Source: Escherichia phage T1. Taken from it: a stretch of 48,836 bases of DNA. Below are positions 2,904 to 46,624 of the stretch, in pieces. Where the stretch lies: sequence record NC_005833.1, one strand, 5' to 3'. How positions within the stretch are numbered: the stretch's first letter is position 1; each line of letters begins with the position of its first letter. Both the position numbers and the translations under genes were made by a program. A model generated the notes under the pieces. The model was given only the letters and a program-made list of their open reading frames with translations, did no database searches and was not told the DNA's origin.

Positions 2904-3389
2904 ATGTTAAAATTAAAAGATATTCAGTTCCCTGTAGTATTTAACACTATTAGCTGCGGTAAAATAACCTGCCACAGCAAAGATCGCGCAACAGATTCAT
3001 CATTCAATGAGTGCCACCCGTCTATTGTTGGTAATCTTATTGAGCTTCATAACAATCACAATCCTGATAACATCCCATCTCTTCCATATTATGTTGAGGG
3101 AGTCGGGCCTGGTTGGAAGGTTGGTCGCTCCATCTTCCATGCAGCAAAGCCAGAAATCAAGCCAGCGCTACAATGCACTCAGATCGAGAACATGCCATTG
3201 AGCGCGACACTAAAAGGTGTCCAACTTGATAGCGAATCCTGGATCGAGATTACCGCCACGCCTAAAACTATTGAGGTACATGATGATGTGGTGATTCTCC
3301 TGTTGCATTACGGCAGCTTTAAGCACAAGACGGTATCAGGTGAAATCAGCATTAAGCGCGGAACTCTTGTCCGCTACGAGGTGAAATAA
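2904..3389 (+). CDS. hypothetical protein (161 aa)
   Basis: Track ORF after box-hairpin element 2829-2879. Confidence 0.5.
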   Translation: MLKLKDIQFPVVFNTISCGKITCHSKDRATDSSFNECHPSIVGNLIELHNNHNPDNIPSLPYYVEGVGPGWKVGRSIFHAAKPEIKPALQCTQIENMPLSATLKGVQLDSESWIEITATPKTIEVHDDVVILLLHYGSFKHKTVSGEISIKRGTLVRYEVK

Positions 3390-3538
3390 TGACTGCATGG
3401 GTCTTGATTATCTTGATGAGCAAAGGTCCGGATCACGTATACATGGAAAGTCAACAATCATGCAACAAGGCACGGGAAGTTATCGCAGAGAACAAGCCGT
3501 TCGGATATGAAGTAAAAACTATGTGCGTTAAACGATAG
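3389..3538 (+). CDS. small hypothetical protein (49 aa)
   Basis: Manual translation; ATG overlaps upstream TAA (TAATG); stop TAG inside box at 3535. Confidence 0.3.
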   Translation: MTAWVLIILMSKGPDHVYMESQQSCNKAREVIAENKPFGYEVKTMCVKR

Positions 3539-3586
3539 CACGAATTGCTAAACCTTCCGCAAGGCCATTTGATATAGTGGCCTTAT
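3535..3586 (+). promoter_or_regulatory. conserved box-hairpin element
   Basis: ATAGCACGAATTGCTAAAC; TTGCTA 3545-3550; 22-nt spacer; TATAGT 3573-3578; AAGGCCA / TGGCCTT arms. Confidence 0.6.
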
Positions 3587-3618
3587 TGAAGCACGACAAC
3601 CAACTGGAGGTAAAATTT

Positions 3619-3993
3619 ATGAAATTCGAATGTATCAGCGATAACACCAAAAAATTTACTGTTGGCAAAATTTACGATGTTCCGACTGAGCACGCAGAGC
3701 AAACCGTAGCTCTGACCGACGACACGGGCCGCAACCGAATTGCAACCGTAACTCACAACGGTGAAGGTCTTCGCTGGAATAGCGGCGGCACTAAGTTCGC
3801 AACGTTCGGCAAGAAGCGCAAGCGCACCTTCCGCGTCAACGGCAATGTTGCAGCTAACAAGATCCATAACGTCAAGCCGTCGGAAGTTGACCGCAAGCCA
3901 GCGCTGAAGTTTAAAGAGAAGGTGGATTTATTCAATCTTGCCGCCTCGCTTGTTCTCCTGGTCGCTGCTATTTCGCTGCTTTCCATCATGTAA
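3619..3993 (+). CDS. hypothetical protein with C-terminal transmembrane anchor
   Basis: Track ORF 3577..3993; start refined to ATG 3619 after GGAGG; C-terminal LFNLAASLVLLVAAISLLSIM hydrophobic helix. Confidence 0.45.
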   Translation: MKFECISDNTKKFTVGKIYDVPTEHAEQTVALTDDTGRNRIATVTHNGEGLRWNSGGTKFATFGKKRKRTFRVNGNVAANKIHNVKPSEVDRKPALKFKEKVDLFNLAASLVLLVAAISLLSIM

Positions 3994-4000
3994 TGCTAAT

Positions 4001-4035
4001 GGGGAATCGACTCTGAACGGTTCCCCTTTCTTTTG
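4001..4035 (+). terminator. rho-independent terminator
   Basis: GGGGAA(t)CG .. CG(g)TTCCCC stem followed by TTTCTTTTGG. Confidence 0.5.
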
Positions 4036-4141
4036 GAGAAAACACTATGCCAGACTTTTCTAACTGGAATAACGAGCCGCCATCATTTCAGGAGTTGCTA
4101 TTCTGCCTCCTGGTCCTGACATTATCTCTTAAGGGTGTTTT

Positions 4142-4360
4142 ATGGCTACTATCATGACAGTAGAAGATGCAGCACGCGATGCAGTGGAAGGAATGCGCCC
4201 AAATACCTCCAGAATAGCACACTACTACAAATCTGAGGTGTCGGCAGTGCAATTGGTCCACGAAATTTTAAGGCTCCCACAAGTCGATTCAGCGCGCGTT
4301 GTGACGTGCTTAAAAAATTATTTTTGCATCACTATTAAAACGAATAGCACGAATTGCTAA
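4142..4360 (+). CDS. hypothetical protein (72 aa); a competing 36-aa ORF at 4047..4157 has the better RBS
   Basis: Track ORF; weak RBS; overlaps small ORF 4047..4157. Confidence 0.25.
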   Translation: MATIMTVEDAARDAVEGMRPNTSRIAHYYKSEVSAVQLVHEILRLPQVDSARVVTCLKNYFCITIKTNSTNC

Positions 4361-4395
4361 AACCTATCAAGGGGAATACGCTATGATTCCCCTAC
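4344..4395 (+). promoter_or_regulatory. conserved box-hairpin element
   Basis: ATAGCACGAATTGCTAAAAC; TTGCTA 4354-4359; 22-nt spacer; TATGAT 4382-4387; AGGGGAAT / ATTCCCCT arms. Confidence 0.6.
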
Positions 4396-4417
4396 ACCAA
4401 CAAACGAGGAAGCGATC

Positions 4418-4864
4418 ATGAAACACTTAATCTGCATTGAAGCGCCTAACGATCAATACACCCTGCATGGACTTGGTGTGTTCAAAGGTCACTACATTAC
4501 CGCAGGAACTTACGATGCTCGTCGCGGCGATGGCGACCTAATGATTACGTCAAAAGAAGTAAATCCGTACATCATGCAGAATCTTGGCAATAACGAATAT
4601 ATGGCCTATGGCTGCAACGCGGTGTACAAGCACGTTAAGATCCGCAAGCGTGTTGTGCGTGCATTCAAGAAGATTGCAATTAAATACTGGAAAATGAGCA
4701 AGAAAGATGCCGGACGTTGGGCGCGCAACGTTGCAGATTCATACTTCTATCGTAACGGCGAATCCTGCTACTTCCTGATCGATGAACTTATGGAAAACTA
4801 CGGTGGCGACTTCAGCCAGGGTAGCTTTGATGACTGGGCCAACTATGAGATCAGTTGCTGGTAA
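4418..4864 (+). CDS. hypothetical protein (148 aa)
   Basis: Track ORF after box-hairpin element 4344-4395; RBS GAGGAAG; double stop TAATAG. Confidence 0.5.
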   Translation: MKHLICIEAPNDQYTLHGLGVFKGHYITAGTYDARRGDGDLMITSKEVNPYIMQNLGNNEYMAYGCNAVYKHVKIRKRVVRAFKKIAIKYWKMSKKDAGRWARNVADSYFYRNGESCYFLIDELMENYGGDFSQGSFDDWANYEISCW

Positions 4865-4947: not shown

Positions 4948-5478
4948 ATGGATAAAATCACAATTTGGGGCCAGACAATCAACCTGTTTCTCGGCACGCG
5001 CCGAGTGGCAATCTTTGACTTTGACGGGACACTTAGCGATGGATCTGGTCGACTTCACCTGCTGCCAACAAAGGATTTGCACTTGACTGAAAGCTGGTCT
5101 GAGTTTAACCGAGCGGCAATATTTGATAACCCAATCCAGAGCACGATCGATGTGATGAACTCTATGTTTGCCGCTGGGTATCATGTGATCATTTTAACCG
5201 GGCGAAGTGATGAGGTGCGTTACGCATCTGAGTTATGGCTTAAGCATCACGGCGCTCGATATGATTACTTAGTCATGCGACCGCATACCGACAACCGCAA
5301 AGACACGGTAATGAAAGAAGAGGCAGTGCGCGCTATCGGCATTGATAACATTCTTGCGGCTTGGGATGACTCAGTGAATATAATAAAAAAATTCAGAGAT
5401 CTAGGGATAACCACATATCAGGTTTGTGAATATGCCTGTGATAGTCGAGAGGATTTAAATAGTCATGGTGTCGATTGA
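4948..5478 (+). CDS. HAD-superfamily phosphatase (nucleotidase or polynucleotide 3'-phosphatase-like)
   Basis: HAD motif I FDFDGTL, motif II ILTGR, downstream K and WDDS; RBS GAGGAA. Confidence 0.6.
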   Translation: MDKITIWGQTINLFLGTRRVAIFDFDGTLSDGSGRLHLLPTKDLHLTESWSEFNRAAIFDNPIQSTIDVMNSMFAAGYHVIILTGRSDEVRYASELWLKHHGARYDYLVMRPHTDNRKDTVMKEEAVRAIGIDNILAAWDDSVNIIKKFRDLGITTYQVCEYACDSREDLNSHGVD

Positions 5479-5959
5479 TAACAAATCAATGGTAAGAGAG
5501 TTATTTACTTATTCTGACGGCGTTCTGTATTGGAAGGCCAAATCATCTAAATACAGTAGAGCTAAAATAGGAGGCGCGGCAGGAAGCAAGGATAAAGACG
5601 GATACATAATAATCAGAGTAAGAAACGAAACTAGAGGCGCTCACAGGCTTGTATGGATATACCATAATGGCAAGATACCTGATGGAATGGAGGTAGACCA
5701 TATGGATGGAGACATAACAAACAATAGAATAGAAAACCTAAGATTGGTAACGAGAACCATAAATAACAGGAATCAAAAAAAGAGATCTGATAACACAACC
5801 GGAGTATCCGGTGTAACTTTCATGAAAGATAGAGGAAAGTATAGGGCGCAAGTTAGAAACAAGAGACTCGGGCAGTTCGACACAATAGAAGAGGCCGCCA
5901 AAGCAGTAAAGGATGAGCGGGATAGATTAGGTTTATTCACAAAAAGACACGGGGTGTAA
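5465..5959 (+). CDS. HNH homing endonuclease with AP2-like DNA-binding domain
   Basis: YHNGKIPDGMEVDHMDGDITNNRIENL HNH core plus TGVSGV..KYRAQV AP2-like segment; AGA/ATA-rich codon usage unlike neighbours. Confidence 0.75.
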   Translation: MVSIDNKSMVRELFTYSDGVLYWKAKSSKYSRAKIGGAAGSKDKDGYIIIRVRNETRGAHRLVWIYHNGKIPDGMEVDHMDGDITNNRIENLRLVTRTINNRNQKKRSDNTTGVSGVTFMKDRGKYRAQVRNKRLGQFDTIEEAAKAVKDERDRLGLFTKRHGV

Positions 5960-5961
5960 AC

Positions 5962-8395: not shown

Positions 8396-8920
8396 ATGAG
8401 TGAACCTAAGAACGCTCCCGTAGTCCAGGGTGGTAATTTCAAAGAGCTATACAAGAAAAAGTTTGGCACTGTACTCGCGAAAAACCGGGCTATGACGCCA
8501 GAGCAACTATTCGATCTGTCAGTGAAGTATTTCGAATGGGCCGAGGACAATGCGATCAAGGCGTCAGAATCAGCCAGCTTTCAGGGTGGCGTTTATGAGT
8601 CGCTTGTCCATAAGCCGCGCGTCTTCACCTGGACCGGATACCGACTATTCATCGGTGCAAGCGAGGCTGCAATCATTAAGTGGAAGCGAGAGGAAGAATA
8701 CAGCGAGGTTATGGAGTTTGTGGAATCGGTAATCAACGAGCAAAAATTCCAGCTTGCCGCCAACGGTGTTATTAATGCCTCCTTTATCGGTAAGGATCTC
8801 GGAATCGATAAGCCAGCCTCAATCAATATCGAAAACTCGTCAGCTTCCGCATCGACAGTAGTCGCCACTACTGAGGATGCGATGAAAGAGGCGGTAAACA
8901 GCATTCTTGATATGCTTTAA
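8396..8920 (+). CDS. terminase small subunit (positional inference)
   Basis: Track ORF 8372..8920; start refined to ATG 8396 after AAGAGGA; immediately upstream of terminase large subunit. Confidence 0.5.
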   Translation: MSEPKNAPVVQGGNFKELYKKKFGTVLAKNRAMTPEQLFDLSVKYFEWAEDNAIKASESASFQGGVYESLVHKPRVFTWTGYRLFIGASEAAIIKWKREEEYSEVMEFVESVINEQKFQLAANGVINASFIGKDLGIDKPASINIENSSASASTVVATTEDAMKEAVNSILDML

Positions 8921-8959
8921 CTTTAGGGGCGCGAGAGCGCCCACATGGGAGACTTAATC

Positions 8960-10528
8960 ATGATTCAATGGGAAGACCTTAACGCAACGCAGAAGTTAGC
9001 GATCAAGAAAATGAGCGAGGCCAATTTCGAAAAAATGATTCGGATCTGGTTCCAACTTATGCAGGCGCAGCAGTTCCAGCCTAACTGGCATCACCTTTAC
9101 CTATGTCACGAAGTGGAGGAAATTATTGCAGGGCGGCGAGGGAATACAATCTTTAACGTCACACCAGGTTCCGGTAAAACTGAAGTGTTCTCAATTCACC
9201 TTCCGGTGTACGCAATGCTTAAGTGTAAGAAGGTGCGAAACCTTAACGTGTCGTTTGCTGACAGCCTGGTTAAGCGTAACAGTAAGCGCGTCCGTGAGAT
9301 TATCAGCAGCAACGAATTTCAAGAGCTATGGCCTTGCAAGTTCGGTACATCGAAAGATGAGGAGATGCAGGTTCTTAACGAAGATGGAAAGGTTTGGTTT
9401 GAGTTGATATCCGCAGCGGCTGGCGGTCGTATTACTGGTTCGCGTGGTGGCTACATGACGCCGGGATTCTCGGGGATGGTAATGCTAGACGATATCGACA
9501 AGCCTGATGATATGTTCTCAAAGGTTAAGCGTGAGCGTACGCACATGCTATTGAAAAACACCATCCGTTCCCGTCGTATGCATAACGAGACGCCTATTAT
9601 TGCAATTCAGCAGCGACTACATGCTCAGGATTCAACCTGGTTCATGATGAATGGCGGTATGGGTATTGAGTTTGACCAAATCTCAATACCGGCGCTGGTG
9701 ACGGAAGAATACGGAAAGACACTTCCTGATTGGTTGCAGCCTTACTTTGAGCGTGATGTTTTATCGTCTGAGTATGTAGAATTGGATGGCGTTAAGCATT
9801 ACTCTTTTTGGCCAAGCAAGGAAAGCGTTCACGACCTGTTGGCGTTACGAGAAGCAGATCAGTATACCTTTGATTCTCAGTATCAGCAGAAACCGATCGC
9901 GCTGGGTGGCTCCGTGTTTAACTCAGAGTGGTGGACTTATTACGGCAGCAGTCTTGACGCTGACGAGCCAGATCCGGGTAAATATGATTACCGATTCATC
10001 ACTGCCGATACCGCTCAGAAGACAGGCGAGCTAAACGACTACACGGTATTTTGTTTGTGGGGCAAGAAGAATGATAAGGTTTACTTTATCGACGGCATTC
10101 GCGGAAAGTGGGAAGCGCCGGATATGGAGAGGCAATTTACAGCTTTCGTCAATCAGGCATGGAGGCACAATAAATCAATGGGGGTACTTCGTAAAATTTA
10201 TGTGGAAGATAAGGCGAGCGGTACGGGCTTAATCCAGAACCTCAGGAAAAAGACCCCGATCTCAATCACTCCATTGCAGCGTAACAAAGACAAAGTTACC
10301 CGAGCTATGGATGCTCAGCCAGTTATTAAAGCCGGGCGCGTGGTTCTGCCAGAAGAGCACCCTATGCTTGCTGAAATTATCGCTGAACACAGTGCCTTCA
10401 CTTACGATGACACCCATCCGCATGATGATATCGTCGATAACTTCATGGATGCGGCGAACATCGAATTGCTGACCATTGATGATCCTATCGAGAGAATGAA
10501 GCGACTCGCCGGGATGGTTAAGCGGTAA
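8960..10528 (+). CDS. terL: terminase large subunit
   Basis: Track ORF 8945..10528; about 520 aa; P-loop-like TPGSGKTE; N-terminal ATPase plus C-terminal nuclease-sized protein upstream of portal. Confidence 0.85.
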   Translation: MIQWEDLNATQKLAIKKMSEANFEKMIRIWFQLMQAQQFQPNWHHLYLCHEVEEIIAGRRGNTIFNVTPGSGKTEVFSIHLPVYAMLKCKKVRNLNVSFADSLVKRNSKRVREIISSNEFQELWPCKFGTSKDEEMQVLNEDGKVWFELISAAAGGRITGSRGGYMTPGFSGMVMLDDIDKPDDMFSKVKRERTHMLLKNTIRSRRMHNETPIIAIQQRLHAQDSTWFMMNGGMGIEFDQISIPALVTEEYGKTLPDWLQPYFERDVLSSEYVELDGVKHYSFWPSKESVHDLLALREADQYTFDSQYQQKPIALGGSVFNSEWWTYYGSSLDADEPDPGKYDYRFITADTAQKTGELNDYTVFCLWGKKNDKVYFIDGIRGKWEAPDMERQFTAFVNQAWRHNKSMGVLRKIYVEDKASGTGLIQNLRKKTPISITPLQRNKDKVTRAMDAQPVIKAGRVVLPEEHPMLAEIIAEHSAFTYDDTHPHDDIVDNFMDAANIELLTIDDPIERMKRLAGMVKR

Positions 10529-28606: not shown

Positions 28607-28912
28607 ATGGCGTACGGTATATCAACTTGGGACGCAAATGGCGTTTATAATAACTATGGAATTAAGCCTATTACGGTTGTTGGTTGGAACTTTTTGTCAG
28701 CAGGCCAGAATTCAGCATCGTTCAGCTATCAAGTGCCTCCTGGTATGCATGTGAACTACGTTATAAGCCTTGACGATGGCGCCATTAGTGGGCCTGGCAG
28801 GAAAATTATTGCTAGCGGTAATACGATAACAGTAACGCCAACAAACTCACCTGGGCCAAACGTGTACCCATCATCAAACTGTTACTTAATAGCATATCTG
28901 GAGAATGATTAA
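28607..28912 (+). CDS. hypothetical protein, paralog of next gene
   Basis: Track ORF 28580..28912; start refined to ATG 28607 after GGAGGA; MAYGISTWDANG resembles MSYGAFIDVNGN of next ORF. Confidence 0.4.
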   Translation: MAYGISTWDANGVYNNYGIKPITVVGWNFLSAGQNSASFSYQVPPGMHVNYVISLDDGAISGPGRKIIASGNTITVTPTNSPGPNVYPSSNCYLIAYLEND

Positions 28913-29601
28913 TGTCATACGGTGCTTTTATAGATGTAAACGGAAACCCATTCATAACCCCGTTATCCACGCCATTCGCTTTATATGCGAGAGGGGAAAT
29001 TCAATCAGTAAATGTTAGTGGTTCACAGGTTGCGGAGAGATACGTTCGGATACCTACAGGTGTTCCGGTTATAGCTTTTTGCAAAACAACAAACACGCAG
29101 CAGGGGACCGCGCTTTCAGCCTTTACTTTCAGAAGCGGACCCAATGTTGGAACTGTTTATATAAGGGGGACAAATCCAGCAAACCAATCATACACGCTAA
29201 CATACTACATATTTGCCATATTTGAGCAGTCACTACCGAGATGGGGTATGGCAATATGGGATGCGTCAGGAAAGCTAGTGCTGACAAATGAGACAAAAGT
29301 CCTTAGTGATTTGGTTACAATCGGCACTCCTGGATACGCTGGCGGTGGATTAAACATAGACACAACACTCAGCGGAAGCTACGCGGTTGTTCCAACTATA
29401 CTTGGCAACTATCAAGTTGTTATTGGAAGGTTGCCAACTGGGCAACCAATAATAGGAAACTCAACAGCAGGCAGTTCATGCAGGTACAACGGGAGCACAA
29501 CGAGAATAAATGCAGCAGCAACCACTGCGGCAGGTCAGATAATGAACACAACGAATAATGGAAATATTATAACAGCAATCAAAACGGCAGCATACGACTA
29601 A
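28912..29601 (+). CDS. hypothetical protein, possible tail accessory
   Basis: 229-aa ORF, ATGA overlap; ATA/AGA-rich codon usage; followed by bidirectional terminator. Confidence 0.4.
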   Translation: MSYGAFIDVNGNPFITPLSTPFALYARGEIQSVNVSGSQVAERYVRIPTGVPVIAFCKTTNTQQGTALSAFTFRSGPNVGTVYIRGTNPANQSYTLTYYIFAIFEQSLPRWGMAIWDASGKLVLTNETKVLSDLVTIGTPGYAGGGLNIDTTLSGSYAVVPTILGNYQVVIGRLPTGQPIIGNSTAGSSCRYNGSTTRINAAATTAAGQIMNTTNNGNIITAIKTAAYD

Positions 29602-30377: not shown

Positions 30378-31442
30378 ATGTTCCAGGTATTCACATCAAG
30401 CCAGCTTTCTAACGACGAGTATCATAGAAACGAAGGTTGGGCGTCAGAGTATGTAAGCGGATCGAGTCTTGCAGAAATTTATCAGACCTGCCCTGCTAAC
30501 TGGAGATTCAAGAAGAACGAGACAACGAAAGCTCTGGAGTTCGGTACTCAGTCGCACACCAACTTTGAGAGTCGAGATCTGTTTACTGCAACGTATGCTA
30601 GATGCCCTGCTCCGTCAGAGTTTAAGGATCTGATTACTTCGCAGGCGGCGCTGGCAGCAAAATTAAAATCATTCGGCCTGAAAGGTACATCCGGTAAGCA
30701 GTACCCGGACCTCATCAAAATGATGGTTGATTGTGGTGAAGAACTCAACGTTCAATACCTGATTGAACTGATCGCAGAAGCTGAGGCCCGTGCTGAAGGA
30801 AAACAACTTGTTGACGCGGACAAATACGACGCTTGCATGAAGATGAGAGCCATCCTTGAGCAGAATCCCGATCATGAAGCGTGCATCAACAGTGAAACGG
30901 CGCAGCGTGAGATTTCAATCTTCGGTGAGATATCCGGCGTAAAAGTTAAGGTTCGACTTGACCATCTGGACTACAAAGAGAATGTTCCAGGTCGTGTCCT
31001 GACTGGTTATGATGAGAATGGCGATCCGGTATTTGAAGACGTAATTTTCCCGGAAGCACTGATTATCACAGATTTCAAAACTACGATGAGCGCCAACCCG
31101 TTAGAGTTCCCGAGACTGGCATACAATCACGGCTATTACCTGAAGATGGCATTGCAGCATGACCTGCTACGACGCGCAATCCAGGCTGGAGCTTTTGAAG
31201 GTAACTTCCCGGAAGACATTCCGATCGTGGTTCGATTGCTTGCGCAGGAGAAAAAAGAGCCTTATATCGCACTGGCTTACCGTATGACTATGGAGCAAAT
31301 CAGGATAGGTCGTAACCAGTACATTAGCGTAGTCCACACTTACAAGGCTTGCTCTGAAATGGATGTTTGGCCTGGGTACGCTGGCGACGCAAGCGAGATC
31401 GAACTTGAAACGCCATCATGGGTGCGTTACCAAAATAAGTAA
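30378..31442 (+). CDS. PD-(D/E)XK-type exonuclease (recombination exonuclease)
   Basis: 354-aa ORF; IITDFKTT motif consistent with a D..(D/E)xK nuclease core; sigma70-like promoter 30319-30346; first gene of exo-annealase-SSB set. Confidence 0.55.
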   Translation: MFQVFTSSQLSNDEYHRNEGWASEYVSGSSLAEIYQTCPANWRFKKNETTKALEFGTQSHTNFESRDLFTATYARCPAPSEFKDLITSQAALAAKLKSFGLKGTSGKQYPDLIKMMVDCGEELNVQYLIELIAEAEARAEGKQLVDADKYDACMKMRAILEQNPDHEACINSETAQREISIFGEISGVKVKVRLDHLDYKENVPGRVLTGYDENGDPVFEDVIFPEALIITDFKTTMSANPLEFPRLAYNHGYYLKMALQHDLLRRAIQAGAFEGNFPEDIPIVVRLLAQEKKEPYIALAYRMTMEQIRIGRNQYISVVHTYKACSEMDVWPGYAGDASEIELETPSWVRYQNK

Positions 31443-31513
31443 ACGGCATAAATAGCTAAACAAATAATTAATGAGGTGTTATAATGCACCTCATACACCA
31501 ATCAGGAGAAGTT

Positions 31514-32164
31514 AAGATGCAATTATCACCAGAAACAAACGAAATCCTTCCCGCACTGTTCAATGCTCGCAATAAATTTGCTAAAGCAAAGAAGGACGCA
31601 AAAAACAATCACCTGAAAAATTCATACGCAACTCTTGATGCAATGATGGCTGCGGTTAGTCCGGCGCTAACCGACAACGATATTATGATCCTGCAATCAA
31701 TGCTGGACACCAGCACTGAAACAACCTTCCATCTTGAAACGATGCTGATTCACAAATCCGGGCAGTGGGCCAAATTCTTCATGATGATGCCGATTGCAAA
31801 GCGCGATCCGCAAGGCGTAGGTTCTGCAATGACGTATGCTCGACGTTACTCATTAGCCGCAGCGCTGGGGATTAGCCAGAGTGATGACGATGCTCAGCTT
31901 GCAGTGAAATCCGTCAAGGACTGGAAAAAAGAACTTGATGCGTGTGAAGACATCGAGTCACTGAAAGATGTATGGGCCAACGCTTACCGCCAGACTGACA
32001 CGGCGAGCAAGTCAATCATTCAGGATCACTACAACGCATTGAAGGCTAAATTTGAGATCGGTAAAGCTCGCGGCATTCGCCCGGCGCAACCGGAACAGAA
32101 AAAACAGGTTGAAGCAACAAGCGCGAAGCCTGTACAATCCCAATCAATCACCAACTTCGAATAA
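31514..32164 (+). CDS. single-strand annealing protein (Erf/RecT-like, positional)
   Basis: Track ORF 31484..32164; start refined to ATG 31514 after AGGAG; between exonuclease and SSB. Confidence 0.45.
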   Translation, partial: KMQLSPETNEILPALFNARNKFAKAKKDAKNNHLKNSYATLDAMMAAVSPALTDNDIMILQSMLDTSTETTFHLETMLIHKSGQWAKFFMMMPIAKRDPQGVGSAMTYARRYSLAAALGISQSDDDAQLAVKSVKDWKKELDACEDIESLKDVWANAYRQTDTASKSIIQDHYNALKAKFEIGKARGIRPAQPEQKKQVEATSAKPVQSQSITNFE

Positions 32165-32210
32165 TCATCAGGGCGGCTTAGGTCGCCCATAAAATTTAGG
32201 AGAGAAAAAC

Positions 32211-32633
32211 ATGCATATTATCACTGGCGAGATCCGCAAAGAACCAAAGATTCTTGAACGTAACGGCGGCAATACTTATATTATCGAACTGGCAGAAAGC
32301 TATAAGCCTCGTGATGGCGATCGCGAATACACCAACTACACGTTCTTTTTTAGCGACGGTGGGAAGCCAGGCCTTGCTGACTGGTATCGTGAAGCGTTCC
32401 AAGTTGGTCGAGTTATCTCAGTATCGTGCGAGACGTTGAAGATCTCATCACGCGAACACAACGGAATGATTTACAATTCATTGCAGGCGGCTGACTTCCC
32501 TAAACTAGTATTTAGTCAACGAGGTCAAAGCAACCAGCAACAACGAGCGCCTCAGCAACAACAGCGTTCTCAGCAGCAATCACAACCACAACCAAATCAA
32601 CAATCAACATTTGACGACGATATTCCATTCTAA
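32211..32633 (+). CDS. ssb: single-stranded DNA-binding protein
   Basis: 140 aa; Gln-rich linker and C-terminal acidic tip ..FDDDIPF characteristic of bacterial-type SSB. Confidence 0.8.
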   Translation: MHIITGEIRKEPKILERNGGNTYIIELAESYKPRDGDREYTNYTFFFSDGGKPGLADWYREAFQVGRVISVSCETLKISSREHNGMIYNSLQAADFPKLVFSQRGQSNQQQRAPQQQQRSQQQSQPQPNQQSTFDDDIPF

Positions 32634-32694: not shown

Positions 32695-34881
32695 CTACGT
32701 ATTTTTTAAGCTTTCAACAAACTCTCCAGATACCATTCTTTCATGATTTCTTTTGCACTCTTCAACCTTCTTGTTGTAAATCGAGTCATTAGGCATCTCA
32801 ACTCGAACGCTAACAAAAACATCACTCGGAATGTCAATAGGATCTCCGTCGCTATACCCATCCTTATGATTTCTTGCGAATGAAGGCGCGTTATCATGAG
32901 TTCTATGATAAGTCTTGATAACCAAAGACCCATCAGGGTTAACATCATAATCTACCCACAATATAGGCTGTCCGTTAATGTCTTTTGGTATCTCTATACC
33001 ACCATTAACACCACCCCACGCTAGATCAGAATTTAGTGATAAACACCCCCTTATCAAATACTCGCCAGTAGAAATCCTCTCAACTGTACAACCTTCGCTC
33101 TCGTCGTTTGTTCTATGGCTCCCGTTGCCAAAAATATCAACGATGGGCGAGGCTCTTTTTATAAATCCGTTAGAGTCAACGGTTGTATTGCCTGTATTCC
33201 ATATAACCTGGGTAGATTGCCATTGCCCCGCTCCTGTCTGTTTTCTGAGCCTCACATCCTTATAGTGTGGAGAGGTCATTGATGCGTCTTCAATAACAAA
33301 ACCGAAAGCACTACCATCTCCTTGACCGTTTCTATGACGAACAGATATAGCTGTGACCCATCCAACAGAATTAACATTGTAACTTGCAAGGCTGCTAGGC
33401 TGAGATGATAAGGCGTTAACATAATCTACCCAGCTTGATTTCTCGTTAGATGCCGGACTTGATACAACGTTACCGGAAGAACTTGCCTGAAACGGTATCC
33501 ACGGAGAAAACTTTGCATTATTGCCGTTTTTCATCCTTATGTAAAAAGTGCCGCGACCCGCTCTTGCGTATTCGTTTTGAGAATTTCCAGATTCTGGGGC
33601 AGTACCCAAATAAGTAAAAGGCGTAAATCTCTGAATGCAAGCGCTTGCACCGTTAGCTCCATTAGGAAGAACCTCAAGCATACCTGCCGTAGCCTCAGGA
33701 TAGCCCCTACTAGCGGTAGCTAAAGCACTTGATGATTGCATATATATTCCAGGGCCATCACCTTCACCAGTTATTGAATCAAGATGTTTTTCCCCTAAGT
33801 TAGTTCTATCAAGTTTGTAAACCTTTAGGCTTGTCCTTGCCTGCTCCTCGGTAGTTCCACCAGTGCCACCAAAATTAACCCCTAGAGCCTTGTTTTCACT
33901 TCCATCATGAGTCATGGCGCCCCAGTCGCCGCTATCCTTGACGATCAGCTTAAATCCGGTCCTATCGTCATTTGAATAGATTTCCGTTAAATCTCCGCGA
34001 GGTTGATTTAATCTATTTACTGCTAGATTTTTCTTTGATTGCTCCTTGTCAGCAAGGCCAGAAAGATTTCCGTCCTTAGTTAAAAGATTGTCAGCATTAA
34101 CGCTATTTGCTGCGTCCTGAGCTTCCTGAGCACTTACCGCTGCCGCGTCTTTAGCGCTAACCGCCGCATCGCGTGCTGCCTGGGCATCGTTTTTTGCTGA
34201 GGTTGCAGTTTGCGCCGCAGTCTGAGCATCATTAACATAGCCAGATAGATCGCCTTTAGCGTCATTGATTGCCTGAATGGCCGCCGCCTCTTCAGAGTTA
34301 ATATGCGTAACGGCTGAATTTTCTTTTTGCTGCACATTAGTGATAGCCTTGTCTTTTGCTGCATTAATGCTACCAATAGCGCTATCTGAGATTTGCTGCG
34401 TCTGGTTTTTTATTGAGATAGACTCGTCACGCGCTGAATTAGCTGAGTCGCGAGCAAGCTCCGCTTGATTCTGCGCAGCTTCTGCGGCTGATTTGTTTGA
34501 CTTAATTTCTTGAACGATATTGTTCAGGTTGTCCATATCAAGATCGGCAATAATATCCAATGCCGATGCGATCTCAGTCTCTTTGCTCTGGTAGTACCGA
34601 AGCGTCTCAGCGACGTTTTGCGCAAGACCGTTAACGGTCAATGAATCGTTAAGCAAGATCACATACTTACCGTCAGCGGCAGTCTGACCATCCGTAGAGA
34701 TAGCCTTTAGCTCTGTGTCGCTCACAATGTCGCTGATTACCGCCAGTTTAATTGGTTGCTCCAGGAATACGATAGTTGCACCGACTCGAATCAGAGCAAG
34801 CTGATCTTTCCATTTTGTATCGGTTCCGTGAACCGTACCGTCTGCATCCATTGATGCAGTACCGCGTCTATATAAAGCCAT
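32695..34881 (-). CDS. tail fibre protein
   Basis: 728-aa reverse-strand ORF; long Ala/Gln/Asp/Ser-rich helical N-terminal region, Gly/Ser/Asn-rich beta-like C-terminal region. Confidence 0.6.
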   Translation of the reverse strand: MALYRRGTASMDADGTVHGTDTKWKDQLALIRVGATIVFLEQPIKLAVISDIVSDTELKAISTDGQTAADGKYVILLNDSLTVNGLAQNVAETLRYYQSKETEIASALDIIADLDMDNLNNIVQEIKSNKSAAEAAQNQAELARDSANSARDESISIKNQTQQISDSAIGSINAAKDKAITNVQQKENSAVTHINSEEAAAIQAINDAKGDLSGYVNDAQTAAQTATSAKNDAQAARDAAVSAKDAAAVSAQEAQDAANSVNADNLLTKDGNLSGLADKEQSKKNLAVNRLNQPRGDLTEIYSNDDRTGFKLIVKDSGDWGAMTHDGSENKALGVNFGGTGGTTEEQARTSLKVYKLDRTNLGEKHLDSITGEGDGPGIYMQSSSALATASRGYPEATAGMLEVLPNGANGASACIQRFTPFTYLGTAPESGNSQNEYARAGRGTFYIRMKNGNNAKFSPWIPFQASSSGNVVSSPASNEKSSWVDYVNALSSQPSSLASYNVNSVGWVTAISVRHRNGQGDGSAFGFVIEDASMTSPHYKDVRLRKQTGAGQWQSTQVIWNTGNTTVDSNGFIKRASPIVDIFGNGSHRTNDESEGCTVERISTGEYLIRGCLSLNSDLAWGGVNGGIEIPKDINGQPILWVDYDVNPDGSLVIKTYHRTHDNAPSFARNHKDGYSDGDPIDIPSDVFVSVRVEMPNDSIYNKKVEECKRNHERMVSGEFVESLKNT

Positions 34882-35978: not shown

Positions 35979-36431
35979 TTAACTAAAAATGCTATTGGTC
36001 GTTCCGATATCTTCCCTCTTCACGACGCGCATAAATTTCTTGTTCTTGCATCGCTTCTCAAGGCACTTGCCGTTACCGTCAAACTTCAGGTCGAATCGCA
36101 ACCATGCGGCCCTAAACCCTTTGCACCCCTGTCGGCGGTAAGCACGATGCGCAGCTTCAGCGCCTTGCCATGAAATCATATTGCGTTCTTTCCAGCCTTG
36201 CACCGTCTGATTGCTAACCTTCAGAGCCTTTGCGCAGGCCGCCGGGCCGCCGTAATATTCGATAAGGGCATCAAGTCGCGCTCGCAGTCCGGCGCGCGTT
36301 TCTTCTTTATGAATATAGAACCCGCAACGCTGGCGAGGCTTTTTATCTTTACCGCGCCGTGTTCCGTTGTTACCATTGATGTGACGTTTATCGATTTCAC
36401 CAGTTGACTCTGCGATACGTTGAATACTCAT
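35979..36431 (-). CDS. HTH DNA-binding protein (possible transcriptional regulator)
   Basis: 150 aa; basic; helix-turn-helix-like AACAKALKVSNQTVQGW segment. Confidence 0.4.
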   Translation of the reverse strand: MSIQRIAESTGEIDKRHINGNNGTRRGKDKKPRQRCGFYIHKEETRAGLRARLDALIEYYGGPAACAKALKVSNQTVQGWKERNMISWQGAEAAHRAYRRQGCKGFRAAWLRFDLKFDGNGKCLEKRCKNKKFMRVVKREDIGTTNSIFS

Positions 36432-40051: not shown

Positions 40052-40261
40052 ATGGCACGCATTAACGCAAACTTTTTCAATATCGCTCAGCAGTCCGCAA
40101 AAATGGCTGTTCATATTACGAACAAGCAAGGCGGCAACTTCGATTGGGATATTGCTATGAACTTCCTTAAAATGTCTTATTACCGTTGCTCAGTTGAAGA
40201 AGTCGAAGGCTTCATCTCTGACGTGGAGAAATTAACTAATGCTGATAAAAAAGCAAGGTAA
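40052..40261 (+). CDS. hypothetical protein (about 69 aa)
   Basis: Track ORF 40037..40261; start refined to ATG 40052 after GAGGAA; preceded by box-hairpin element. Confidence 0.4.
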   Translation: MARINANFFNIAQQSAKMAVHITNKQGGNFDWDIAMNFLKMSYYRCSVEEVEGFISDVEKLTNADKKAR

Positions 40262-40511
40262 GCGCGAAGTGTGGGAGCACGCAAAGGAATGCGGCATCTC
40301 AGACGATATAGCATTAATTGCTAAATACTTTGATATAAAGGATGTTAGCATTATATCAAACGGCAAGATTTCATTTATGGAAGGTATGCCGAGAAAAATG
40401 CAAAGAGTTCCAGCCACTCCATCACTTGAGTTTTACCGCGAAGAGGGAAAGAGAATTGAGCGAGAAAGAAAATCCACAAAAAACGGCAAGTCTTCCCGGC
40501 TTAAATATTAA
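40239..40511 (+). CDS. hypothetical protein (90 aa)
   Basis: Track ORF; overlaps next ORF in another frame. Confidence 0.3.
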   Translation: MLIKKQGKREVWEHAKECGISDDIALIAKYFDIKDVSIISNGKISFMEGMPRKMQRVPATPSLEFYREEGKRIERERKSTKNGKSSRLKY

Positions 40512-40821: not shown

Positions 40822-41955
40822 ATGTCACAAGCTAAAATCACTACCGAGCAACTTATCGAAGAGCGCATGAGCGGCCTGACACTTCGCGAGATCGCGGAAA
40901 AGTACGGTATGCACATTCGCACTGTCGAGGCGCGTCACGCAAAACTTGCAAAAGAAGGCCACTTCCACGGCAACGAGCATGTTGCTAAGATGGTTCCGGA
41001 AGGCTTCATGGTAAAAGGCACGTCAACCATGATTGACGCGGAAGGTAACGAGAAGATTCGTTGGGTTAAGACATCAGTTGATAATGAGCGCCTTGAGGTT
41101 CTAATGGAAAAAGCGCGTGAAGCATTCTGTTCAGAGTTGCCTAAGGCTATTCCATCTGAATCACCTGACGTTAGTTTTGATGAAGACACGCTTGCGATGT
41201 ATCCAGTTTTTGATTTGCACATTGGTGCTCTTGCTCACAAACATGAGTGCGGCGAAAACTACGACACAGCGACAGCAGAGAAGGTTATGAATGGGTTCTT
41301 TGACTACGCTGTAGATAAGGCGCCAAACTCAAAGAATGCCGTATTGGTATTGGGTGGCGATTTCCTACATTACGACTCTTTGGAGTCTAAGACTCCAGCG
41401 TCAGGCCATTACTTAGATTCTGACAGTCGTTACGCTAAGCTTGTTTATGTCGCAATCCGATCAGTACGACGCGCAGTCTCTCGAATGCTGGAGAAGCACC
41501 AAGTTATTGATATTAAAGCAATAAGTGGGAATCACGACGAATCAGGGATGGTTTGGTTGCGCGCTGCGCTTGCTGCATTTTATGAAGATGAGCCGCGCGT
41601 AAATGTTGATGTTAGCCCTGCCGCAATGATGATGACCAGCTTTGGTAAGACCCTTATTGGATACACTCACGGGCATCAAATGCGAAAAGCAGATACTCGA
41701 CTAAGTGTTATGGCAACTGATTTTCGTAAGTTGTTTGGTCAAAGTGATTACGTTTACACGCATAGCGGTCACTGGCACAGTCAAAAGATTACAGAAACAA
41801 ACTTGGGTATTGATGAGGTTCATGGTCAGCTTGGAAGTCCTGACGCATACTCTGCCAATGGCGGTTGGAGGTCTCAGCGTCAAGCTGCTGTGATTGTCTA
41901 TCACAAGGAATTTGGTGAGGTTGGACGATTCATTTGTCGACCTGAAATGTTCTAA
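40822..41955 (+). CDS. HTH domain fused to calcineurin-like metallophosphoesterase
   Basis: N-terminal HTH-like LTLREIAEKYGMHIRTV; C-terminal GGDFLHYD and ISGNHDE metallophosphatase motifs. Confidence 0.6.
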   Translation: MSQAKITTEQLIEERMSGLTLREIAEKYGMHIRTVEARHAKLAKEGHFHGNEHVAKMVPEGFMVKGTSTMIDAEGNEKIRWVKTSVDNERLEVLMEKAREAFCSELPKAIPSESPDVSFDEDTLAMYPVFDLHIGALAHKHECGENYDTATAEKVMNGFFDYAVDKAPNSKNAVLVLGGDFLHYDSLESKTPASGHYLDSDSRYAKLVYVAIRSVRRAVSRMLEKHQVIDIKAISGNHDESGMVWLRAALAAFYEDEPRVNVDVSPAAMMMTSFGKTLIGYTHGHQMRKADTRLSVMATDFRKLFGQSDYVYTHSGHWHSQKITETNLGIDEVHGQLGSPDAYSANGGWRSQRQAAVIVYHKEFGEVGRFICRPEMF

Positions 41956-42010
41956 ATAGCACCTTTTGTTAAAACAGTACCCGCGAAAGCGGGTATTATT
42001 GTTTTATAGA
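41956..42010 (+). promoter_or_regulatory. conserved box-hairpin element upstream of HNH gene
   Basis: ATAGCACCTTTTGTTAAAAC; TTGTTA 41966-41971; 22-nt spacer; TATTAT 41994-41999; CCCGCGAAAGCGGG inverted repeat. Confidence 0.55.
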
Positions 42011-42027
42011 AACAAGAGGAGATTGCA

Positions 42028-42510
42028 ATGAACTGGCACGAGCATTACGAATATAGGGATGGTGTTCTATATCACAAGGTAAAGCCATGCAGAAGGCATG
42101 ATGTAAATATTGGGGATGTTGCTGGAAGGGTTGCCAAAAACGGCTATCACTATGTTGTTCACAAGAACAGGCCGTATAAGAGATCTCGAGTTATATGGGA
42201 GATGTTTAATGGTGAGATACCAGATGGTTTTGTTATAGATCATCTGAATCACAATGCCACCGATGATAGGATCGATAACCTTGAGTGTAAGCCAAGAAGA
42301 GAGAATATGGTTAATGTTAAGTTAAGGATTGATAGCACGACCGGAGTAACTGGCGTATCAAGAAAGAGGGATAACAAGTGGAGGGCGTACATAACAATTA
42401 TGGGTAAGCAGAAGTGCAAGAGCTTTGACACGTTTGAGGAAGCTTGCGCGCAGAGGATTGAATGGTCAGTAACTCATGATTTTCACCCAAATCACGGTGG
42501 AACATACTAA
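42028..42510 (+). CDS. HNH homing endonuclease with AP2-like domain
   Basis: GEIPDGFVIDHLNHNATDDRIDNL HNH core, TGVTGVS..KWRAYI AP2-like segment; AGA/AGG/ATA-rich codons. Confidence 0.75.
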   Translation: MNWHEHYEYRDGVLYHKVKPCRRHDVNIGDVAGRVAKNGYHYVVHKNRPYKRSRVIWEMFNGEIPDGFVIDHLNHNATDDRIDNLECKPRRENMVNVKLRIDSTTGVTGVSRKRDNKWRAYITIMGKQKCKSFDTFEEACAQRIEWSVTHDFHPNHGGTY

Positions 42511-42560
42511 TAGCACCTTTTACCTAACCCGCGCCACAGAAGTGCGGCATAGTAACCACA
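42510..42560 (+). promoter_or_regulatory. diverged box-hairpin element
   Basis: ATAGCACCTTTTACCTAA; 22-nt spacer; CATAGT 42548-42553; CGCGCCACAGAAGTGCGGC region. Confidence 0.45.
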
Positions 42561-42582: not shown

Positions 42583-42759
42583 ATGAAGATAGTCAAGTGC
42601 ATCCGAAATGACTCCAAAACACTTCCATTCCGTGTAAATCAGATCTATAGTGTTGGTTATGATTTCGGTGGGGGATTATTTGAGATTTACGACGGGCGAG
42701 GTTCAGCAATCCAGACTCCTCTGAACGGTCACTACCTGGAATTTATTGAGATAGATTAA
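42583..42759 (+). CDS. small hypothetical protein (58 aa)
   Basis: Manual translation downstream of box element 42510-42560; weak RBS. Confidence 0.3.
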   Translation: MKIVKCIRNDSKTLPFRVNQIYSVGYDFGGGLFEIYDGRGSAIQTPLNGHYLEFIEID

Positions 42760-44516: not shown

Positions 44517-46085
44517 TTAACCCATCAGTCGAGGATTGATGAAAACAATATCATCAATCCGGCAAGTGTAGTTCATCTCTTCGAGCGTGATCAGCAGGCT
44601 GTCGATTCGCTCAGCTACTTTTTGTTGACCGTTGAACGGCGTAACGTTACGGCACTTTGCAACAATGCTATGAATAGGTGCGCGACCTTTGTTCTTCTTT
44701 GCGATCTCAGTGATAACATCAATCAGCTTACGAGATTCAGCCTCATCACCAGCATACCCGGCGGCGCTGGCAGACGACAGATAGGTTCTGGAAAGCTCAT
44801 TGAAAATCATGATCGCTTCCTGCATTGTTTCAAGGTCAATCTCACGGTTGGAACGGTTCGGTGATTCACCCTCCCAGTTCTTGATTGTGTGAAGAACTGA
44901 AGCAATGCGCAAAGCGTGCTTATCGAACTTGCCGAGATGACCGCGTAGCATTGAGTGAGAGTATTTGCCCCCGGCTGCGAAATCCGGCTCCATAGCCTGG
45001 CGAGCAAGGTTTAATTCACGCATAGCATTACGGCTTACAGAGAGAACAACGTTGTCCTCCTTCATAATGTTGTGCACAAGTCGATAATATTTACTCACCA
45101 ATCCTCGATCGACTTCCTTATACAGTGCATCACCATTTTCATCGCAAAGAATACGAGTGCCTAAAAGAGGTTCCTCGCGAACCAATAGGAAACGCTCAGA
45201 TACACCGATACCGCGCTGGCCTGCGTCCATGATACCCTTGATTGTTTCATCCTGCGCAATGACGCAGATCGAACCGACCGGGCAAAGAGATAAGTTATTG
45301 TCCTGATTTGAACGCGCAACCTCCATATGGTTTTTATCCCACGCCTTGAGGATAAGCTCGCTGTTTGATTTCTTATCAGAACCGCCATAAGTCAGGCCAA
45401 GCAATGTATTTATTGCCGTTGCCTCATCAGAGATTACGGAAAAGTGGCCTTGAACAGCAGCTACTTTCGCAAGACCTTCCGGTGTAGGATCTGATACCGC
45501 GAAAACAATATCAGCCATCTTCTTGATCTTCTCTTCCAGTTTTTCCTTGTCCTCGTACAGCGCCGCCGTCGTGTTACCCTTCGGATCGTTTTTGATTTCC
45601 TTCTCGATCTGACGTAGCTGACTGGTTAAACGGATACGTTCCTTTTTGCGCTCTTCATTCAGTCTCTGAATCTCTGCGCGCATAGGTGTAATCGCCGCTG
45701 AGTTAATCGCGGATTTACCTGTTGATGGTGGCTGGCTAATCACCATATAAAGAGCGGTCGGTTGTTCTTCTCCGTGATATTGCACCCAAAACTTCCCTAG
45801 CATCGCGGCTGAGATGCACCCAATGAAATGAGCGTACGCAGACGAAACAGGAAACTGTACAGACTCAGCTTTTGCTTTTGCATATTCGAATACCAGGTTA
45901 TCGCCACCTAACGAAATCAGCGGGAACTTATCGTTTCCACTGTTGATATCGATCGGGTCTTGCCAAAACGAAACTGAATCCCCGTAGCTGTTTTCACGAA
46001 TTGCGATCGCCACCGGATTAACTCCAGTGCTATTTGCGATCTCAATAATCTGTTGGTAATTCAGTTTTGGCTTAATATTAAACAT
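44517..46085 (-). CDS. P-loop NTPase (possible replication-associated ATPase)
   Basis: Track ORF 44517..46148; start refined to Met 46085 (ATG sharing one base with HNH stop); Walker A-like QPPSTGKS. Confidence 0.55.
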   Translation of the reverse strand: MFNIKPKLNYQQIIEIANSTGVNPVAIAIRENSYGDSVSFWQDPIDINSGNDKFPLISLGGDNLVFEYAKAKAESVQFPVSSAYAHFIGCISAAMLGKFWVQYHGEEQPTALYMVISQPPSTGKSAINSAAITPMRAEIQRLNEERKKERIRLTSQLRQIEKEIKNDPKGNTTAALYEDKEKLEEKIKKMADIVFAVSDPTPEGLAKVAAVQGHFSVISDEATAINTLLGLTYGGSDKKSNSELILKAWDKNHMEVARSNQDNNLSLCPVGSICVIAQDETIKGIMDAGQRGIGVSERFLLVREEPLLGTRILCDENGDALYKEVDRGLVSKYYRLVHNIMKEDNVVLSVSRNAMRELNLARQAMEPDFAAGGKYSHSMLRGHLGKFDKHALRIASVLHTIKNWEGESPNRSNREIDLETMQEAIMIFNELSRTYLSSASAAGYAGDEAESRKLIDVITEIAKKNKGRAPIHSIVAKCRNVTPFNGQQKVAERIDSLLITLEEMNYTCRIDDIVFINPRLMG

Positions 46086-46624
46086 CACAATAAACTCCTT
46101 AGTTGACGGCGTGAATGATACACCGTCAATGGTACACGCGTTTTGCAAAAAGTGCTATTCGATCCGTGATTCTCATGAAAACCGTATAGCCTTTCCGCTT
46201 CCTTCCTTGCTTTAGCCGCTGCATCCAGCGTCATGAAGGTCCCTAAGTGTTTTGTCTTTTTATTTATGGTTATGTTTGCCGTGTATCTATTTGTTTTTTT
46301 ATTCCAATACACTCCCATAACTCCTGTGTTTGATGACACTACTCCCTTGTTTCTTAGGTTGTCTTGCCTAGTTACTAGCCTGAGATTCTCAATTCTGTTA
46401 TCGTCTCTTTCATGGTTTATGTGGTCTACATCCATTCCTTCTGGTATGTTTCCGTAGTGTATTTTCCATACTATTCGATGGGCGTATTCAAATACACCTC
46501 CTGGAAAACATATTGACCGATAACCTTTTTTATTAACAGTTCCGGCAAGTAGATTTCGTCTTCTTCCGATTCTCCACTCTTTCCAGTACAGTCTCCCGCT
46601 AACGTATTTCAGTTCATCTTTCAT
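46085..46624 (-). CDS. HNH homing endonuclease with AP2-like domain
   Basis: GNIPEGMDVDHINHERDDNRIENL core; AGA/ATA-rich codons; last 25 codons read through a box-hairpin element. Confidence 0.75.
   Translation of the reverse strand: MKDELKYVSGRLYWKEWRIGRRRNLLAGTVNKKGYRSICFPGGVFEYAHRIVWKIHYGNIPEGMDVDHINHERDDNRIENLRLVTRQDNLRNKGVVSSNTGVMGVYWNKKTNRYTANITINKKTKHLGTFMTLDAAAKARKEAERLYGFHENHGSNSTFCKTRVPLTVYHSRRQLRSLL
46100..46160 (-). promoter_or_regulatory. conserved box-hairpin element, reverse strand, inside 3' end of HNH ORF
   Basis: Reverse complement reads ATAGCACTTTTTGCAAAA, 22 nt, TATCAT, then RBS and ATG of P-loop NTPase gene. Confidence 0.55.

Follow-up and report, generated by a model that had tools for sequence, protein, structure and literature searches.

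The genome of coliphage T1 carries three related genes (5465–5959, 42028–42510 and 46085–46624, here HNH-1, HNH-2 and HNH-3) that, judged from comparative sequence analysis, are most likely three free-standing HNH(HNN)-AP2 homing endonuclease genes. Their mobility had been proposed in a sequence-only reading of the same DNA, and comparison with other phages supports the proposal; the D-H...N...N residues are kept, dN/dS of HNH-2 is 0.09, the genes are patchily distributed with sharp junctions, one lineage recurs at the same site, and recombinant tracts adjoin two of the three insertions. The unusual codon usage and patchy distribution of these genes are real, but they are ordinary for genes of this class.

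The window analyzed here, a stretch of 48,836 bp, is the T1 genome, with 99.9% identity to Tunavirus T1 isolate 22 (MN153797, Drexlerviridae); the region around 42028–42510 is 100% identical to Escherichia phage JMPW2. When the 76 genes of MN153797 are mapped onto the window, two of the three loci carry the label 'homing endonuclease' (5465–5959 and 42014–42496, the latter corresponding to 42028–42510 of the window) and the third the label 'HNH endonuclease' (46071–46598, or 46085–46612 of the window). All three open reading frames named in the sequence-only reading are present, and the one at 46085–46624, whose strand had been left unstated, lies on the minus strand, the plus-strand reading being full of stops. 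Their description as paralogues also holds, with pairwise BLASTP identities of 39%, 42% and 36% over nearly the full length (E 3e-29 to 2e-21). The sequence core that they were said to share is approximately right: GxIP(D/E)G is found in all three, whereas VDH is not (HNH-2 has IDH) and neither is D(N/D)RI (HNH-1 has NNRIENL).

The three genes are indeed free-standing. The further claim that they sit between unrelated genes at module boundaries fares less well, as an obvious boundary exists only for HNH-2, which lies between DNA metabolism genes and the lysis cassette; HNH-1 is flanked by genes for a polynucleotide kinase-phosphatase (PNKP)-type phosphatase and a P-loop kinase, so its neighbors are not clearly unrelated. 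HNH-3 shares an ATGA overlap with the stop codon of its upstream gene and a TGATG overlap with the start codon of a DUF3987 helicase gene. HNH-1 and HNH-3 are probably translated within the operons of the upstream genes that they overlap. The ribosome-binding site of HNH-2 is strong and the gene has its own upstream copy of an intergenic motif, and a promoter scan around it returned no plus-strand sigma-70-like site above chance. Downstream of HNH-2, the small gene at 42583–42759 (plus strand) matches Pfam DUF7244 (E 9e-29), and it has been described as a solitary SH3 domain belonging to the lysis module (PMC13164509, 2026). The features discussed below are collected in Table 1.

Table 1. Features of the three HNH loci of phage T1, in window coordinates
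Feature	Position	Strand	Remarks
HNH-1	5465..5959	+	164 aa; HNH-AP2 paralogue; ATG overlaps final 14 nt of phosphatase gene
HNH-2 (focal gene)	42028..42510	+	160 aa; probable free-standing HNH(HNN)-AP2 endonuclease gene; own AGGAG ribosome-binding site
HNH-3	46085..46624	-	179 aa; HNH-AP2 paralogue
HNH_3 / His-Me finger core of HNH-2	42178..42312	+	aa 51-95 by Pfam; D71, H72, N84, N93
AP2-like DNA-binding domain of HNH-2	42343..42474	+	about aa 106-149; three strands, one helix
3' ~950 nt of 'DNA repair exonuclease' gene	41000..41955	+	foreign when compared with other Tunavirus; possible co-converted flank
Upstream copy of intergenic motif ATAGCACCTTTT	41956..41967	+	directly after exonuclease stop codon
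Downstream copy of ATAGCACCTTTT	42510..42521	+	begins at last base of HNH-2 stop codon
Diverged 3' end of PNKP-phosphatase gene	5373..5478	+	replaced together with HNH-1
Segment inserted relative to HNH-less SH6 at site 3	46161..46621	-	~461 bp; alignment gap, flanks 97-99% identical
Pre-existing intergenic DNA read as HNH-3 tail	46085..46160	-	97% identity to SH6 intergenic region

At the protein level, HNH-1, HNH-2 and HNH-3 all fall in phrog_99 ('HNH endonuclease') and match Pfam HNH_3 (PF13392) at 68.7, 78.9 and 77.5 bits (E 3e-19 to 2e-22), far above the gathering score of 24.8 bits. The AP2-like segment that had been noticed by eye scores 18.6, 21.3 and 28.4 bits against Pfam AP2 (PF00847), in each case below the gathering score of 33.3 bits; a precomputed PF00847 call is present in some database homologues. 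This sub-threshold assignment is confirmed by structure prediction: an AlphaFold model of HNH-2 (35 homologues as input, mean pLDDT 86) has a C-terminal sheet of three strands packed against a single helix, which superposes on solved AP2/ERF domains, and a beta-beta-alpha fold like that of a solved His-Me finger protein. A search of the PDB with the single HNH-2 protein sequence gave no match, and a family profile was needed; with it, the homing endonuclease I-HmuI (PDB 1U3E) was matched at E 1e-10, and the profile alignment places D74, H75, N87 and N96 of I-HmuI in register with the four residues listed for HNH-2 in Table 1. The HNH-1 counterparts are D78, H79, N91 and N100, and the D-H...N...N residues are likewise found in HNH-3. 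Each protein is thus composed of an I-HmuI-like N-terminal beta-sheet DNA-binding region and His-Me finger, followed by a C-terminal AP2-type domain, and this combination makes the label 'HNH-AP2' correct.

Among the 35 homologues, H72 and N84 (HNH-2 numbering) are invariant and D71 and N93 nearly so. In the clade of the focal gene, two otherwise conserved blocks are replaced, AHR by KRSR and LRLVT by LECKxRR, and the KRSR and LECKxRR blocks are kept among homologues of 62–81% identity. The dN/dS of 0.09, obtained for HNH-2 between T1 and Escherichia phage AugustePiccard, indicates purifying selection on the protein.

How are these genes distributed? Counting a locus as kept when at least 80% of it is retained in a record, we find HNH-2 (site 2) kept in 3 of 86 matched records, HNH-1 (site 1) in 6 of 112, and HNH-3 (site 3) in 3 of 64; in most of the remaining records the HNH gene is missing and the flanks are about 92–97% identical. 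Presence or absence at one site in close relatives with intact flanking genes of 92–99% identity, as expected of a homing gene, is seen at all three sites. A published survey likewise found the T1 HNH gene that precedes the small SH3-domain gene to be sporadic, in 25 of 522 Drexlerviridae genomes, and absent from KanT1 (PMC13164509).

The lineage of HNH-2 is moreover found directly 3' of a 'DNA repair exonuclease' gene in four phage lineages: T1, AugustePiccard (Braunvirinae; gene bas01_0051), TH27 (Nouzillyvirus) and Salmonella phage wksl3 (Jerseyvirus; gp48). Relative to T1, the HNH protein has 78% amino-acid identity in AugustePiccard, 74% in TH27 and 62% in wksl3, and in all three pairs divergence is lower for the HNH gene than for the adjoining exonuclease gene, with dN values of 0.12 versus 0.31, 0.19 versus 0.32, and 0.32 versus 0.70, respectively. 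Recurrence at the same site together with lower divergence is the pattern that would be expected of an element spreading horizontally into one cognate site; this comparison covers the HNH-2 lineage only, HNH-1 and HNH-3 having too few close relatives. The sites are also hot spots that hold different genes of the kind in other phages; site 2 of ACG-M12 is occupied by a different paralogue with 42–45% identity.

The junctions at site 2 are best seen against SH6, a relative in which the HNH-2 gene is absent. Up to position 41000 the two genomes are 95–99% identical; over the final ~950 nt of the exonuclease gene identity falls to 55–70%, HNH-2 itself has no counterpart, and identity returns to 94–99% from about 42549–42550, downstream of HNH-2. 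The diverged tract, 41000–41955, is 82–93% identical to Guelphvirus ACG-M12, as opposed to only 54–65% upstream of 41000. With an SH6-like 5' part and an ACG-M12-like 3' part, the T1 exonuclease gene is therefore chimeric, and its foreign part abuts HNH-2. A chimeric gene in this position is as expected from flank co-conversion, and it could also be ordinary mosaicism that happens to end at HNH-2.

At site 1, the alignment of T1 with SH6 breaks at ~5373 and resumes exactly at 5960, at the ribosome-binding site and start of the kinase gene. From the position of this break, it follows that HNH-1 arrived together with a replacement for the final ~105 nt of the phosphatase gene. We considered whether HNH-1 had split a once-fused polynucleotide kinase-phosphatase gene; this idea was rejected, as phosphatase and P-loop kinase are already separate in SH6, with a 108-bp spacer, and the gene upstream of HNH-1 gives only a phosphatase domain in Pfam. 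The phosphatase and kinase genes of vB_SsoS_008 (MK335533.1) are separated by what is left of HNH-1, a shortened and unannotated remnant (locus ~1174–1461; 40% identity by tblastn, with large gaps). This remnant may be a decaying homing endonuclease gene, in a record that looks noisy, with many split genes, and may simply be error-rich. In ACG-M12 (NC_019404.1, locus 3195–4796), a phosphatase and kinase gene pair directly follows an HNH gene downstream of the exonuclease gene, at a genome location different from that in T1. These two ACG-M12 genes are rich in AGR and ATA codons and low in GC, and for this reason an HNH 'island' may have carried them along as cargo.

Site 3 is a clean insertion into a 76-bp spacer. 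The cassette came without a stop codon of its own, and HNH-3 consequently reads through 25 codons of intergenic DNA to the TGA that overlaps the helicase ATG; the resulting 25-aa C-terminal tail does not align with the paralogues. Loss of the stop codon and acquisition of the tail could represent early decay. Neither flank is diverged when compared with SH6, so this site bears no signature of co-conversion. In Eco_BIFF (NC_047996.1), site 3 is instead occupied by a different HNH-AP2 paralogue (946–1431 of the locus; 39.5% amino-acid identity to HNH-3), with a 3' junction identical to that of T1 (GAGAATCACGGATCG|AATAGCA) and ~75 nt of the upstream gene diverged. This arrangement suggests cassette replacement, with recombination taking place inside the codons for the conserved C-terminal ENHG.

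A short intergenic motif recurs around these genes. Its conserved form, ATAGCACYTTTT, usually continuing G[TC]TAAAAC, occurs at 11 places in the window: 109 (minus), 1450 (plus), 2269 (plus), 15075 (minus), 18839 (minus), 36444 (plus), 38953 (plus), 41956 (plus), 42510 (plus), 46147 (minus) and 48740 (minus). When up to two mismatches are allowed, there are 19 matches versus 9.7 expected. The motif typically begins where a stop codon ends; a hairpin comes next and, ~22 nt on, a TATAGT/TATTAT-like hexamer; downstream of the copy preceding HNH-2, the hairpin is at 41976–41997. One copy adjoins an XRE-like regulator gene (35979–36431), and the hairpin after one copy carries a terminator label in a different record. 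The unit could be a promoter, an operator or a terminator. Since it brackets HNH-2 and abuts HNH-3, where ATAGCACTTTTT lies at 46147–46158 inside the intergenic DNA that encodes the HNH-3 tail, we also considered it as a landing or target site; that role is unlikely for a general T1 motif found at 11 places, and in wksl3 the site occupied by the same HNH-2 lineage lacks the motif.

The three genes had been described as visibly richer in AGA, AGG and ATA codons than their neighbors, and per-gene codon statistics on 75 gene models (the three HNH genes and 72 others) bear this out, usage being formally non-uniform. AGA and AGG make up 44 of 52 arginine codons (85%) in the HNH genes versus 145 of 696 (21%) elsewhere (Fisher p=1e-20), and ATA makes up 20 of 29 isoleucine codons (69%) versus 123 of 973 (13%; Fisher p=1e-11). 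Expressed per 1000 codons, AGA, AGG and ATA together place the HNH genes at ranks 1–3 of the 75 (160, 115 and 113), against 5–35 in their immediate neighbors; the three genes contribute 3.4% of the codons, yet 23% of all AGR codons and 14% of all ATA codons. When a G statistic for synonymous codons is set against a null resampled at fixed amino-acid composition and length, they rank 2nd, 3rd and 6th (z 7.4, 7.2 and 5.4). The bias extends to other A-ending codons, namely GGA, GTA, CCA and CTA. It is also seen in homologues in other phages relative to their own neighbors, with AGR accounting for 10 of 11 arginine codons in AugustePiccard, 16 of 17 in ACG-M12 and 17 of 17 in Eco_BIFF, which makes it a property of the HNH gene family.

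Most simply, the AGA/AGG/ATA-rich, A-ending usage is the mark of a pool of genes passed between phages and not adapting to the T1 backbone. The bias may also keep nuclease expression low in E. coli. A search for phage tRNAs able to decode AGR or ATA found none, T1 having no tRNA genes at all. A more elaborate proposal, which we regard as unlikely, is that the enrichment goes beyond a mark of foreign origin and is a selected cassette trait that throttles or times translation of a potentially toxic nuclease through the host's supply of rare tRNAs; AGR usage of 85–100% is found in the T1, AugustePiccard, ACG-M12 and Eco_BIFF copies, proteins that are only 35–45% identical.

Codon usage also singles out several other T1 genes. 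The top codon deviation in the genome belongs to a function-unassigned non-HNH gene at 28912–29601 (plus strand; z 8.2, AGR 8 of 9, ATA 15 of 20), whose product has no Pfam match, and small ORFs at 28607–28912 and 40239–40511 lean the same way. All three were probably also recently acquired. Fifth in codon deviation is the tail-fiber gene at 32695–34881 (minus strand; AGR 20 of 30), which is a single 728-aa ORF here and two CDS in MN153797.

Are there other ways to account for these observations? It is unlikely, in our assessment, that one or more of the HNH genes are relics that no longer home and, once fixed, are drifting to loss or are kept only as DNA-binding proteins. Decay does happen, as the shortened HNH-1 remnant in vB_SsoS_008 indicates and as the degeneration of HNN-AP2 genes described in Xanthomonas phages illustrates (PMC2248197), and both the missing stop codon of HNH-3, with its 25 codons read into intergenic DNA, and the altered conserved blocks of the focal clade could be taken as its signs. 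Against this, all three ORFs are full length with D-H...N...N kept, the dN/dS of the focal lineage is low, and the altered blocks are themselves kept across homologues of 62–81% identity, which argues that they were selected and did not arise by random decay. Also deserving of mention is retention of the genes mainly as phage weapons or utilities that cut competing phages, satellites or host DNA, given that homing-endonuclease domains have been co-opted in phage–satellite conflicts (PMC10448857) and that, in biochemical terms, attack on a co-infecting relative does not differ from homing. We hold this to be very unlikely, however, as each gene is absent from nearly all close relatives and all four phage lineages have the focal lineage at a single insertion site next to the same gene, a pattern of homing and not of a general nuclease.

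The codon deviation might instead reflect weak expression or amino-acid composition only, and neither foreign origin nor mobility; the existence of other AGR/ATA-rich T1 genes (those at 28912–29601 and 40239–40511 and the tail-fiber gene) and a capsid gene that deviates in the opposite direction would fit. That explanation is highly improbable, because a test controlled for composition and length still gives z values of 5.4–7.4, homologues in other phages show the same bias versus their own neighbors, and the limits of the deviation match the insertion boundaries exactly. Finally, membership in the HNH superfamily and the location of HNH-1 2.4 kb upstream of the small terminase gene might bring to mind the terminase-associated HNH proteins that serve DNA packaging in HK97-like cos phages. 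The terminase genes lie at 8396–10528, though, and the nearest HNH gene ends at 5959, so that none is adjacent as HK97 gp74 would lead one to expect; the T1 proteins are HNH_3 plus AP2, and nearly all Tunavirus relatives do without the genes, a dispensability that effectively refutes a packaging role.

Mobile homing endonuclease genes thus remain our preferred reading, and we infer cleavage, target position, immunity and homing itself from established knowledge of free-standing homing endonucleases. Homing would begin with co-infection of a cell by a relative that does not carry the HNH gene. The enzyme would recognize an extended site near the insertion point of the empty allele, probably inside the conserved neighboring gene or else next to it, and then nick or cut it, and recombination would mend the break using the HNH-carrying genome as template; T1 has annotated genes for an exonuclease, an Erf-like annealing protein and an SSB at 30378–32633. 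Repair would copy the HNH gene and co-convert flanking DNA, and T1's own allele would presumably be shielded because its flank, which moves along with the cassette, has diverged. Next to site 2 and site 1 lie foreign tracts, at 41000–41955 and 5373–5478, and T1 site 3 is without one relative to SH6; ordinary mosaicism could also produce such tracts.

The GenBank annotation and published work on the HNN-AP2 genes of T1 mean that the finding is correct but already known, and because the T1 HNH genes have been recognized for two decades, its significance beyond good annotation is small. What is added here are the exact junctions, the chimeric exonuclease gene, the association of one lineage with its site in four phage lineages, and formal codon statistics. 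In practical terms, the three loci and their chimeric flanks (41000–41955 and 5373–5478) are best masked when Tunavirus phages are typed or their phylogenies built. The strict tie of the focal lineage to the 3' side of the exonuclease gene offers a concrete place to seek an HNH-AP2 target site; a search of the literature found no published activity, target or homing test for any T1 HNH protein. As T1-like phages are easy to cross, they are well suited to measurement of homing and marker co-conversion, or to phage engineering with HNH elements.

Among known systems, I-HmuI of Bacillus phage SPO1 is a strand-specific nickase. The T1 proteins are like it in the N-terminal region and His-Me finger, at 17% sequence identity; they differ in that I-HmuI comes from a group I intron and has a helical C-terminal DNA-binding part, whereas the T1 genes are free-standing and their C-terminal domain is of AP2 type. 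In their presumed lifestyle, the T1 genes resemble the Seg and Mob genes of phage T4, free-standing intergenic genes whose products cut a neighboring gene of a related phage, with flank co-conversion and 'marker exclusion'. The Seg proteins, however, are GIY-YIG enzymes, and the Mob proteins are HNH proteins without AP2. To our knowledge, few enzymes of the HNH-AP2 class have been characterized, and most members are without biochemical characterization. The nearest counterparts are the orthologues in AugustePiccard, TH27 and wksl3, which occupy the same position as T1 HNH-2 in genomes of other subfamilies or genera. Further afield are the HNN-AP2 or 'IPA-HNH' genes of Xanthomonas phages Xp10, OP1 and Xop411 and of Vibrio phage ICP1, which, like those of T1, join an N-terminal HNH(HNN) to a C-terminal AP2 domain (PMC2248197; PMC10448857) and occur as several free-standing copies per genome at variable locations; they belong to other phage lineages and hosts than T1 and are likened to its genes by description. 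T1 has itself been listed among the phages with multiple HNN-AP2 genes, in work that describes both gain and decay of such genes (PMC2248197). The HNH-AP2 'IPA-HNH' genes, of which T4 has none, have been defined as homing endonuclease genes, and nuclease genes have been found to mark the boundaries of genetic exchange between phages (PMC10448857).
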